This document shows positions 42,149 to 43,684 of a stretch of DNA of 44,003 nt, one piece after another. The position numbers were made by a program, and so were the translations under genes. Position 1 is the stretch's first letter; each line of letters starts with the position of its first letter. This DNA comes from an uncultured Clostridia bacterium (GTDB lineage Bacteria; Bacillota; Clostridia; TANB77; CAG-508), in contig CANRGM010000002.1 in NCBI GenBank assembly GCA_947630155.1, positions 1 to 44,003 of the forward strand, given 5' to 3'. Under the pieces are notes generated by a model. The model saw only the letters and a program-made list of their open reading frames with translations. It was not told the DNA's origin and ran no database searches.

Positions 42149-43655
42149 GGAATTTTGTAAAATAAAAAAATGGTTAAAATCTGTAAGAATTAAACTTTTT
42201 TTTACACTATGTATTGTTATTACAATGATTATATTATTATTGATTATTGTAAATAATATTGTTTTAGAAAAATTTTACTTATATAACAAAACTAAAACAA
42301 TGAAATTGATTTATGAAGAAATTAATAAATCATATAATAATAATTTATCTTATGAAACAATAGAGCATAATTTAAAAGATTTGTCTATAAGAAATAATCT
42401 TGATATTGTGATAAAAACAAATGATAATATTTTAATTCTTGCAACTGATAAATATAAGATAGATTATGAAAATCAAATAAAATTTTTCTATAATTTAAAG
42501 AATAATGGAGAAAAGTTACAATCATTATATAATGAAGAAAATATTAATATAAATTTAATGAAAGAAGATGACACGAAAGTTAATTATATAGTAGTTTCAG
42601 CAGATTTGGATAATGGATATGAATTATATATGGAAACTCCAACAGCTGACTTACAAGAGAGTGCTAAAATTTCAAACAATTTATTGATAACTCTTGGAGG
42701 TGTGGTTATTATTATTTCTGGAATTATTGCATCTTTTGTGTCAAGAAAATTTACTGCACCAATATTGGAATTGAATGGAATTGCACAGAAAATGTCCAAT
42801 TTAGATTTTTCACAAAAATATGAAACTAAAGATGCAGAAGATGAAATTAATAATTTAGGTAAAAGTATCAATACAATGTCAGATAAATTGGAGAAAACTA
42901 TAAATCAATTGAAGGTAAATAATAGTGAACTAGAAAAGGATATTGAGCGAAAATCTAAAATAGATGAGATGAGAAAACAATTTATATCAGATGTATCTCA
43001 TGAATTAAAAACTCCTATTGCATTAATTCAAGGATATGCAGAGGGATTGGTTGAAAATGTGAATGTGGATAATGAGTCTAGAGAATTTTATGCAAATGTT
43101 ATACTAGATGAGGCTAATAAAATGGATATGCTTGTTAAACAATTATTGGAGTTAATGAAATTGGAGTATGGAAAACTTGAGTTTAATAATGAAAGCTTTG
43201 ATATTGTTTCTTTAATTAATGAGGTTATAAGAAAATCTAATGTTATGTTGGAAGAAAATAATATAAAAATTACATTTGATGAGAGTAATTCTATAATGGT
43301 TTATGCTGATGTATTTTATATAGAACAAATTATTACGAATTATCTTACAAATGCTATTAGGTATTCTAAAGAGATTGATGGAGAAAGGAAAATTGTTGTT
43401 AGTGTATCTTTGAATCCAGAGAAAAATAGAGTTAGAGTTAGTGTGTTTAATTCTGGTGATAATATTGAAGATAGTGAGTTACAGAAGATTTGGGGAAGGT
43501 TTTATAAGATTGATTCTTCTAGAAATAGAGAAAATGGTGGAACAGGGATAGGTTTGGCTTTTGTTAAGGCTATTATGAATAATTATAAGAATGAGTATGG
43601 AGCAGTTAATAAGGTTGGGGGAGTTGAGTTTTTCTTTGAGGTTGAGGTAGGTTGA
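42135..43655 (+). CDS. HAMP-domain sensor histidine kinase
   Basis: Two TMs, HAMP, SHELKTP, NAIRY, GGTGIGLA. Confidence 0.95.
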   Translation: MKLNEEFCKIKKWLKSVRIKLFFTLCIVITMIILLLIIVNNIVLEKFYLYNKTKTMKLIYEEINKSYNNNLSYETIEHNLKDLSIRNNLDIVIKTNDNILILATDKYKIDYENQIKFFYNLKNNGEKLQSLYNEENININLMKEDDTKVNYIVVSADLDNGYELYMETPTADLQESAKISNNLLITLGGVVIIISGIIASFVSRKFTAPILELNGIAQKMSNLDFSQKYETKDAEDEINNLGKSINTMSDKLEKTINQLKVNNSELEKDIERKSKIDEMRKQFISDVSHELKTPIALIQGYAEGLVENVNVDNESREFYANVILDEANKMDMLVKQLLELMKLEYGKLEFNNESFDIVSLINEVIRKSNVMLEENNIKITFDESNSIMVYADVFYIEQIITNYLTNAIRYSKEIDGERKIVVSVSLNPEKNRVRVSVFNSGDNIEDSELQKIWGRFYKIDSSRNRENGGTGIGLAFVKAIMNNYKNEYGAVNKVGGVEFFFEVEVG

Positions 43656-43684
43656 TGTTTTTTGGGGGGCTTTTGCAGGGGGCC

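Follow-up and report, generated by a model that had tools for sequence, protein, structure and literature searches.

Short hairpin repeats in an uncultured gut Clostridia genome are flanked by strand-specific zones of A-to-G and C-to-T change

Why should the last codons of an otherwise ordinary histidine kinase gene prefer G at their third positions when the rest of the gene, like the genome, prefers A? The question was raised by a stretch of 44,003 nucleotides (the window; GenBank assembly GCA_947630155.1, contig CANRGM010000002.1) from an uncultured Clostridia bacterium of the lineage CAG-508, where the shift lies immediately to the left of a hairpin repeat. The original prediction was that + strand adenines had been mutated locally, in a strand-biased manner that fades with distance from the repeat, with repeated nicking and error-prone resynthesis, adenine deamination in single-stranded DNA or an error-prone reverse transcriptase as possible causes. 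The relevant features are the following:

41435..42148: response regulator gene, upstream of the kinase gene.
42135..43655 (+): histidine kinase gene (506 aa) whose 3' end carries the codon shift, with orthologues at 57-79% amino-acid identity in 19 same-genus genomes.
43395..43655 (+): strongest part of the zone inside the kinase gene, A-poor, C-poor and G-rich on the + strand, with weaker enrichment reaching about 900 nt upstream.
43656..43669 (+): T-run/G-run spacer between the stop codon and the element, which together with the stop codon aligns to the native TTGACTTTTTTCGAAAAA of a congener.
43670..43853 (+): hairpin element, subfamily F1, copy 2, with the left terminus CTTTTGCAGGGGGCCGTC at 43670-43687, 48-nt arms at 43685-43732 and 43796-43843, a G/T-rich 63-nt centre and the right terminus GACTACTCTACAG at 43841-43853.
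43854..43880 (+): right tail ending in TTAAATAG, semi-conserved in a subset of copies and probably part of the element, as judged from a filled versus empty site comparison of a congener (G016) with this genome and the tails of several copies.
43891..43917 (+): relic of the last 8 codons and stop of the kinase gene (reads F V D F A E N T stop), followed by the native promoter of the next gene.
8804..8993 (+): hairpin element, subfamily F1, copy 1, 87% identical to copy 2 with compensatory arm changes, and flanked by G runs on both sides.

The observation is real, and its counts were reproduced exactly. The first 95 codons of the kinase gene have 17 A-ending and 3 G-ending Lys/Glu/Gln codons (3 of 20 ending in G), while the last 60 codons have 1 A-ending and 11 G-ending (11 of 12), and the whole gene has 74/34. 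Against the genome-wide G-ending fraction of 0.197, calculated from 960 crude ORFs, the last 60 codons have a binomial p of 1.7e-7, which makes this the fifth most extreme gene among 24,366 scored windows. In 30-codon blocks from 43395 on, the Lys/Glu/Gln A/G counts are 2/3, 1/3 and 0/6, with a G content of 0.26-0.33 and a C content of 0.02-0.06. The protein aligns with its orthologues up to the last few residues, G2 box included. The spacer TGTTTTTTGGGGGG followed by CTTTTGCAGGGGG is found at 43656-43687, and in a repeat search copy 2 of the hairpin covers 43666-43855. The alignment of the spacer with the congener has 18 positions, of which 10 are identical, 5 are A>G, 2 are C>T and 1 is T>G. 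The relic beyond the element was recognised by alignment with the orthologue in G016 (another species of the genus), whose gene ends D V D M E N T stop inside the same TTGACT.

Three points of the original description had to be corrected. The zone is not A-to-G only, as C-ending pyrimidine codons are also depleted (2 of 81 in the 3' ~900 nt against 6 of 59 in the 5' part). It is also longer than the 180 nt first described, since the G-ending fraction of two-fold purine-ending codons, in 180-nt blocks counted back from the stop, is 0.76, 0.36, 0.36, 0.33, 0.32, 0.23, 0.16 and 0.19. Last, a weaker zone of the same strand polarity lies downstream of elements.

The kinase is one case of a general pattern. 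The genome carries about 25 copies of a non-coding hairpin repeat of 180-275 nt, divided into two subfamilies with different, unrelated stems that share the termini CTTTTGCAGGGGGCCGTC ... GACTACTCTACAG; 28 left-terminus matches were found in the genome against 0 in the reversed/complemented control. Copy 2 folds into one long hairpin, and the top strand folds more stably than the bottom strand in 24 of 25 copies. Elements lie mostly just after genes, with 14 co-oriented genes carrying one in the 3' UTR position, and their presence varies between relatives. A 100-nt core is conserved across species, and roughly nine species bear the element. At synonymous two-fold sites oriented to 25 elements, G/(A+G) in co-oriented upstream genes is 0.63, 0.51, 0.55, 0.41, 0.32 and 0.24 in bins from 0 to 720 nt, against a background of 0.200, while C/(C+T) is 0.02-0.07 against 0.140. 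In upstream genes on the opposite strand, C/(C+T) is 0.47, 0.46, 0.31, 0.34 and 0.21 and G/(A+G) is 0.04-0.14, which is the same top-strand A-to-G and C-to-T change, without the complementary changes. The skew follows the strand of the element and not that of the gene, and this excludes codon selection and ordinary transcription-strand effects. Gene calls were crude (longest ORFs of at least 100 codons), so that some bins hold mis-called frames. The upstream top-strand G/(A+G) is fitted by 0.22 + 0.46*exp(-x/266 nt), while downstream the amplitude is 0.22 and the length 255 nt. Runs of five or more G within 100 nt of elements number 13 on the element strand and 0 on the other. Plain G content of 0.28 or more in 150-nt windows is too common to be useful (303 windows).

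Flanking skew at the other copies had been named beforehand as a point on which the prediction could fail, and it is present: 20 of 23 elements have a higher top-strand G/(A+G) in the upstream 300 nt than at 1-2 kb (0.41 against 0.30 for copy 1). The three exceptions, on contigs C13, C59 and C74, show no upstream excess over their far flank, and the element on C4 has a low near value with no far flank to compare. The 14 gene tails next to an element have a median G-ending fraction of 0.56, against 0.20 for 818 other genes (Mann-Whitney p 4.8e-8), and 10 of 14 against 54 of 818 are at or above 0.5. The pattern recurs in two other species, G016 (14 elements), in which the upstream series runs from 0.45 to 0.22, and G003 (18 elements), in which it runs from 0.46 to 0.13 with C/(C+T) at 0.00 out to 360 nt. 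In an element-free congener, G022 (400 kb, no element termini), extreme windows (p<1e-5) occur in 1 of 381 genes against 22 of 917 here, so they are 8-fold rarer. The zone and the junction are also present in a 428-nt contig from an independent study, with 1 mismatch. Only assembled Logan contigs were examined, so no within-population SNP spectrum was obtained; no strain lacking the element was seen, with 215 further difference rows left uninspected, and another run has no cover at 43427-43627, which is no evidence either way.

The second way in which the prediction could have failed, that orthologues without the element show the same codon gradient, did not materialise either. None of 19 same-genus loci carries the element, and their last-60 Lys/Glu/Gln counts run from 12 A/0 G to 3/3; none of the 18 tails scored shows the shift. 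A further 47 loci from two other collections, partly the same genomes, pool to 403 A/90 G. Across six gene families, the 10 filled tails have 57 A/127 G (69% G-ending) and the 76 empty tails 1042 A/341 G (25%), with medians of 0.72 and 0.24 (p 1.4e-6), although kin genomes are not independent and p-values across them overstate. An insertion shared by three species, beside a gene on contig C17, has the strongest zone, as the 60 codons before the last 60 read 0 A/14 G, 0/14 and 2/12, whereas some other insertions shared between species have only modest zones.

Some of the comparisons do not fit so well. Of the 76 empty orthologous tails, 7 are at or above 0.5 G-ending, and these zones at empty sites remain unexplained; two filled tails are below 0.5. 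At 8 sites filled in G016/G003 but empty here, the near-flank top-strand G/(A+G) is the same (0.341 filled, 0.345 empty), and a paired tail test gave 4 of 7 (p 0.29), both of which count against the reading that we prefer. At one site (C6:8213) the empty genome is more G-shifted than the filled one. Polarising substitutions by strict consensus of six kinase orthologues had little power, with A>G at 7 of 51 conserved A in the last 60 codons against 25 of 374 in codons 1-386, and pairwise differences between filled loci of G016/G003 and this genome were confounded because many counterparts lie at contig ends.

The identity of the element was sought in several ways. No Rfam family matched at gathering score in the window, and only chance-level hits were found in five loci carrying the second subfamily. 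Plasmid and phage collections gave no match, a 22-nt core pattern has no match in viral contigs, and the core was not found in the 120 other genomes sampled from the order. The repeat resembles a MITE in its many dispersed copies with conserved ends and no coding capacity, but it lacks terminal inverted repeats at the very ends, as the arms start about 15 nt inside the left terminus and the shared termini CTTTTGCAG... and ...CTCTACAG are not complementary. On target-site duplication, the kinase site shows the relic of the gene end on the far side and one filled/empty pair suggests a TA(A/G)GTTTT repeat, while a purine/pyrimidine-alphabet test for long duplications over 22 copies gave no signal above other-pair controls, which leaves the matter undecided. 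No autonomous partner with the same ends was found, as solo termini lie next to ordinary genes. The Y1 HUH transposase (PF01797) has 0 matches in this genome and 0 in G003 and the congener G045, and homologues of 222-263 aa in G016 (1) and the congeners G015 (1) and G024 (4) are not flanked by the termini. As in REP/RAYT or IS200/IS605-derived palindromic elements, there is an orientation bias, with elements co-oriented with 90% of ORF bases on their contigs.

The interpretation in the original prediction is supported, with the amendments that C-to-T on the same strand accompanies A-to-G and that a reverse transcriptase is unlikely. The codon shift is a mutational footprint and not selection on the kinase. 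Most likely, although we hold this with only moderate confidence, the strand that carries the element's G-rich sequence is repeatedly left single-stranded beside the hairpin, either because the hairpin folds on the lagging-strand template and blocks the incoming Okazaki fragment or through gap processing at the element. Exposed adenine and cytosine would then deaminate to hypoxanthine and uracil, and only A and C are lost and only G (and T) gained on the one strand, which is the deamination pair. In this view the lesions would go unrepaired because the genus lacks endonuclease V and this genome shows no uracil-DNA glycosylase (UDG). Endonuclease V was found in 0 of 30 genus genomes, and UDG in 27 of 30 but not in this one; tblastn with congener UDG-locus reading frames (10 queries from 5 loci) gave no hit here, and the family-4 UDG is frameshifted at the same place in G016 and G003. 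These absences rest on Pfam and tblastn searches of a 99.3%-complete draft, and other hypoxanthine or uracil repair routes, such as AlkA/AAG-type glycosylases, EndoQ, NucS and ExoIII variants, were not searched. What our data demonstrate is the zone, its strand rule, its gradient, its link to element presence within and between genomes, and the missing repair genes, while single-strandedness, deamination as the chemistry and the replication-stall geometry are inferences. Exposure of the affected strand was not measured here and has only indirect support from gene co-orientation, which is as expected if the top strand is the lagging-strand template; replication direction was not available from the 101-contig draft, and elements on contigs where most genes point the other way (C58, C66) still show the skew on their own strand. 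Spontaneous adenine deamination is far slower than cytosine deamination, yet our rough equilibrium estimate of the extra C-to-T to extra A-to-G ratio is only about 3-5 in this genome, and above 39 in G003. At four-fold sites of co-oriented genes T rises as well as G (A 0.50 to 0.20, G 0.07 to 0.20, T 0.40 to 0.57), which deamination alone does not predict, although amino-acid shifts confound the measure.

Among the alternatives, low-fidelity resynthesis is the strongest but appears to be unlikely. Here the element would be a site of recurrent nicking, fork stalling or restart, and a stretch of the flanking top strand would be remade by a polymerase without effective proofreading (Pol I or DnaE type), whose G:T-type mispairs give A-to-G and C-to-T on the new strand. 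Error-prone Pol I starting at the ColE1 origin gives A>G 42 against T>C 13, C>T 194 against G>A 71 and A>T 24 against T>A 15 on the nascent strand, with frequency decaying exponentially over about 1 kb (PMC3167613), the same signature and scale as ours, including the A>T excess hinted at four-fold sites. However, synthesis primed at the element and running upstream would make the bottom strand, which predicts T-to-C and G-to-A on the top strand, the opposite of what is seen, and the top strand could only be the new strand upstream if synthesis ends at the element. The model also needs many repeated events to reach 60-100% conversion, and no polymerase or nickase is tied to the element. Reverse causality, in which some other lineage-specific process makes G/T-rich tracts at gene ends where elements insert preferentially, would account for the empty sites described above, but we consider it improbable, as the gradient is centred on the insertion point on both sides and follows the element's orientation, zones are scarcer in G022, and the kinase site is filled here with a strong zone that its empty orthologues lack. 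Empty sites with zones are mostly in the closest kin of filled genomes, and one (C49) still holds a 20-nt fused-ends footprint, with an element at that orthologous site in the congener G012, which fits element loss. No independent zone-making process is known.

Programmed targeting by a trans-acting enzyme (a DNA deaminase, a nickase-polymerase pair or the unknown mobilising protein) that recognises the conserved termini or core seems slightly less likely still. The near-saturating conversion next to an old insertion (C17), the conservation of termini and core and the skew on C58 and C66 speak for it, but no candidate gene was found, no coding partner shares the termini, and the targets are ordinary housekeeping genes in either orientation, with no sign of benefit. 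Mutagenic retrohoming of the type of diversity-generating retroelements, in which an error-prone reverse transcriptase copies RNA of the gene end and the cDNA replaces the chromosomal copy, is suggested by the geometry (the 3' end of a gene, then a G-rich tract, then a hairpin), but is already largely refuted. RVT_1 has 0 matches in this genome and in G016 (matches in G003, G024, G045 and G015 were not examined further), blastn of 43300-43669 against the genome finds only itself and a 66%-identical paralogous kinase segment and so no template repeat, the changes are not A-to-N, as A is replaced mainly by G and C is depleted rather than gained, and opposite-strand genes and downstream flanks are affected too. 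Selection or a foreign origin of the gene end (codon adaptation, RNA structure or a recombination tract from a GC-richer donor) could be favoured by the 3' UTR positions and the more stable top-strand folds, but is contradicted by the strand rule and very unlikely, as the bias also appears in spacers and over about 0.5 kb, C falls while G rises, unlike any GC-rich donor, and the kinase tail stays collinear with its orthologues.

The vertebrate mitochondrial heavy-strand gradient and replication-associated strand asymmetry, which reflect deamination of the strand that stays single-stranded longest, show the same two changes on one strand, scaling with an exposure variable, and the top strand of our elements is likewise the gene-rich, G-over-C strand. 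Those gradients span whole replichores or genomes, while here the length constant is about 266 nt, the anchor is a repeated element and G/(A+G) shifts from about 0.2 to about 0.6. The ColE1 footprint and engineered nickase-polymerase mutators share the strand-specific spectrum and the exponential decay over hundreds of bases from a fixed point, but that footprint comes from an engineered polymerase on a plasmid with mutations downstream of the start of synthesis, while this system is natural and chromosomal and strongest upstream of its anchor. REP/BIME, Correia, RUP and other bacterial intergenic hairpin repeats or MITEs are also short, non-coding and palindromic and present in tens of copies, but in the literature searched we found no flanking mutation zone reported for those families. 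Leakage of fungal repeat-induced point mutation into flanking single-copy DNA and strand-coordinated clusters (kataegis) beside breakpoints are also repeat- or breakpoint-centred transitions that spill into neighbouring genes and change their codons and proteins, but they are eukaryotic, cytosine-only and driven by known enzymes, while here adenine is the main target in a bacterium and no enzyme is known. Hairpin-forming inverted repeats raise substitution rates nearby and stall forks (PMC7897504, PMC5737083, PMC12708500), but those papers describe human or model systems with modest rate changes, and not a strand-specific compositional gradient that reaches a new equilibrium in bacterial genes. 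A bolder possibility, which we regard as doubtful, is that the repeats act as cis-acting mutator beacons, a mobile non-coding element focusing strand-specific conversion on about 0.5 kb of neighbouring chromosome, either through a dedicated trans-acting enzyme or through its own structure, in a lineage that has shed uracil and hypoxanthine repair. Literature searches on related topics, including single-strand origins, found no paper on an element-centred strand-specific gradient in bacteria. Each insertion would then progressively rewrite the codons, and conservatively the amino acids, of adjacent genes and leave a datable scar after its loss, as a bacterial counterpart of repeat-induced point-mutation leakage or kataegis.

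These repeats show that a small repeat can locally override the mutational equilibrium of a genome, with G/(A+G) at silent sites rising from about 0.2 to about 0.6-1.0, and can push conservative amino-acid changes into housekeeping genes (in tails next to elements, R over K is 0.39 against 0.28 and V over I is 0.50 against 0.36). They offer a natural, strand-resolved read-out of where DNA is single-stranded or resynthesised around a hairpin, in an organism that seems to lack endonuclease V and uracil-DNA glycosylase, and the zones may serve as scars that record past insertions. They also warn that local codon-usage or GC-skew anomalies in low-GC metagenome genomes can be mutational footprints of repeats rather than signs of horizontal transfer or selection. 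If an enzyme is involved, it would be a candidate natural targeted mutator.

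The stretch analyzed is contig C2 of a 1.147-Mb draft genome (here G000) in 101 contigs with 28% G+C, whose relatives are recorded as uncultured gut Clostridia MAGs. A two-component pair lies at its right end, followed by one copy of a hairpin element, and a second copy is found farther to the left. The features discussed here are the following:
41435..42148 (+), response regulator gene.
42135..43655 (+), histidine kinase gene.
43685-43732 and 43796-43843, the two 48-nt arms (96% complementary) of the 180-nt element, which surround a 63-nt G/T-rich center.
43891-43917, relic of the last eight kinase codons and stop.
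8804-8993, second copy of the element, 87% identical and with compensatory arm changes.
10486-10590, a second, unrelated palindromic repeat.
16892-17144, a 9-nt periodic repeat of about 19 units (GAAACTCCAGGAACTCCAG-like) inside a coding region, which gives a Pro/Thr/Glu-rich linker.

The kinase stop codon is followed by TGTTTTTTGGGGGG, and next comes the element, which starts CTTTTGCAGGGGGCCGTC and ends GACTACTCTACAG. The codon shift described in the original prediction holds, and its counts are exact, as Lys/Glu/Gln codons are 17 A-ending and 3 G-ending in the first 95 codons of the kinase gene, 1 and 11 in the last 60, and 74 and 34 in the whole gene. Over 960 crude ORFs, the genome-wide G-ending fraction is 0.197, so the last-60 window has a binomial p of 1.7e-7 and ranks fifth by gene among 24,366 windows. 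The zone is, however, wider than the 180 nt originally claimed. The G-ending fraction of two-fold purine-ending codons, in 180-nt blocks counted back from the stop, is 0.76, 0.36, 0.36, 0.33, 0.32, 0.23, 0.16, and 0.19, and C-ending pyrimidine codons are also nearly absent from the 3' half.

The same gradient in orthologues lacking the element had been named in advance as an outcome that would count against a local mutational origin, and it was not seen. None of 19 same-genus orthologues (57-79% amino acid identity) has the element downstream, and their last-60 Lys/Glu/Gln counts (A-ending/G-ending) are 10/0, 9/1, 10/2, 9/1, 10/1, 12/0, 5/4, 9/1, 3/3, 8/4, 8/1, 7/2, 11/1, 6/3, 9/3, 6/4, 7/0, 10/3, and 11/5. 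Forty-seven loci from two other collections, partly the same genomes, pool to 403 A/90 G with no element. So the shift is derived and goes with the element. The DNA to the right of the element (43881-43975) matches the native promoter that follows the gene in the congener G016, with the relic of the kinase end first and then the native -35/-10 promoter and ribosome-binding site of the next gene. About 40 bp of the target therefore appears on both sides of the element, and the upstream copy carries the A>G and C>T changes. The spacer to the left of the element, together with the stop codon, aligns to the native TTGACTTTTTTCGAAAAA, the differences being five A>G, two C>T, and one T>G.

BLAST finds about 15 full copies of this subfamily (F1) in the genome. 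The other most extreme gene tails are also followed by an element with the same left terminus but a different, 272-nt hairpin (subfamily F2), while one, on contig C49 (3162-3187, locus L025), is followed by a 20-nt fusion of the left and right termini (GCTTTTGACTACTCTATAA). This is the most G-shifted gene tail in the genome (1 A/21 G), and the congener G012 has a full left terminus at the orthologous site. The fusion looks like the scar of a deleted element. The left terminus occurs 28 times at up to 4 mismatches, against 0 in reversed or complemented sequence, and we compiled 25 elements in all. They fold as long hairpins, with the top strand more stable than the bottom in 24 of 25 because of G:T(U) pairs. 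No Rfam family matches, and searches of plasmid, phage, and viral collections gave nothing. F1 occurs in 9 of 30 genomes of the genus and in none of the 120 other genomes sampled from the order. Y1_Tnp-domain ORFs of 222 to 263 aa occur in congeners (one in G016 at C50:8726-9061, one in G015 at C3:159133-159465, and four in G024) beside housekeeping genes but without the element termini, and none is found in G000, G003, or G045. The unrelated palindromic repeat at 10486-10590 (TGTCAATGGGGACGGAGATTTTTGACACA and its complement) sits, on other contigs of this genome (C12:13126, C17:16417, C20:17668, and C93:2476), inside truncated copies of the hairpin element, and GGGACGG-type repeats also follow kinase and other orthologues in congeners. 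A comparison of a filled site in G016 (locus L076) with its empty counterpart in G000 (C25:115) shows the insertion placed immediately before the TAA stop of the gene, with the element's own left leader supplying a new TAG stop. Several other element-adjacent genes also end in TAG followed directly by the leader.

To examine whether the pattern is general, we oriented all 25 elements and scored synonymous two-fold sites by distance, against background values of 0.200 for G/(A+G) and 0.140 for C/(C+T). In co-oriented upstream genes, G/(A+G) is 0.63, 0.51, 0.55, 0.41, 0.32, and 0.24, and C/(C+T) is 0.02-0.07, while in opposite-strand upstream genes C/(C+T) is 0.47, 0.46, 0.31, 0.34, and 0.21, with G/(A+G) at 0.04-0.14. 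This second result is the decisive one, as on the element's strand the opposite-strand genes show the same A->G and C->T. The pooled fit upstream is 0.22 + 0.46*exp(-x/266 nt), and downstream the amplitude is 0.22. Runs of five or more G within 100 nt of elements number 13 on the element's strand and 0 on the other. A lack of flanking skew at other copies was the other outcome specified beforehand as contrary evidence, but in 20 of 23 elements the upstream 300 nt are more G-shifted than the region 1-2 kb away. Fourteen gene tails with a co-oriented element within 200 nt have a median of 0.56 G-ending, against 0.20 for 818 others, and 10 of 14 are at or above 0.5, against 54 of 818. Amino acids shift in the predicted direction (R over K, 0.39 against 0.28; V over I, 0.50 against 0.36; A over T, 0.81 against 0.65). 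The original interpretation, localized strand-biased mutagenesis of + strand adenines that fades with distance from the element, is supported, with C->T accompanying A->G.

The pattern recurs in two congeners. Around 14 F1 copies of G016, the upstream co-oriented series runs from 0.45 down to 0.22, and around 18 copies of G003 it runs from 0.46 down to 0.13, with C/(C+T) at 0.00 out to 360 nt and no downstream effect in the latter genome. In 400 kb of the element-free congener G022, extreme windows (p<1e-5) occur in 1 of 381 genes, against 22 of 917 here. Over six gene families (the kinase and five other strong tails), 10 tails followed by an element have 57 A/127 G and 10 of 155 C-ending, while 76 empty tails have 1042 A/341 G and 182 of 1323 C-ending, with medians of 0.72 and 0.24. 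An F2 insertion shared by three species has the most saturated zone, which favors accumulation over time. A contig from an independent study covers 43268-43697 with one mismatch, so the zone is not an assembly artifact.

Other results do not fit a simple story. Seven of the 76 empty tails are at or above 0.5, mostly in the closest kin of filled genomes. At eight sites filled in G016/G003 but empty here, the near flanks are equally G-shifted (0.341 and 0.345), and at one site the empty genome is the more shifted. Some elements have little or no zone. We read the shifted empty sites as scars of lost elements, because the C49 footprint is still present, G012 carries an element at that orthologous site, and elements differ in presence between close species. 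Preferential insertion into pre-existing tracts is nevertheless not excluded.

Regarding the mechanism, only A and C are lost, and on one strand, which is the deamination pair. Endonuclease V is found in none of the 30 genus genomes, and UDG (uracil-DNA glycosylase) is found in 27 of 30 but not in G000, where 10 reading-frame queries taken from five congener UDG loci gave no tblastn hit. The family-4 UDG carries the same frameshift in G016 and G003, and split matches occur in seven more congeners. Elements are co-oriented with 90% of the ORF bases on their contigs. While the zone, its strand rule, and these gene absences are what was observed, from them we infer that the top strand, probably the lagging-strand template, is left single-stranded beside the hairpin and is exposed more on the side that an Okazaki fragment blocked at the hairpin cannot reach, its deaminated bases then being fixed as mutations. 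The same signature and length scale are produced by error-prone Pol I synthesis from the ColE1 origin (Allen 2011, PMC3167613), so low-fidelity resynthesis is the main rival, although its simplest geometry predicts the opposite strand upstream. A reverse transcriptase route, which was among the causes originally suggested, is unlikely, and selection is excluded by the strand rule.

Our literature searches found no description of a repeat-centered, strand-specific A->G/C->T gradient in bacteria. The nearest concepts are replication strand asymmetry, non-B DNA mutability, leakage of fungal repeat-induced point mutation, and engineered Pol I or nickase mutators. We regard the process as of a type already known, differing from these in the form it takes here and in being attached to a new repeat family, while an enzyme-driven targeted mutator is possible but unlikely. 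The genome-wide G-ending fraction of two-fold purine codons is 0.200 here and 0.136 in the element-free congener G022. The zones, or the process behind them, may raise the genome average.
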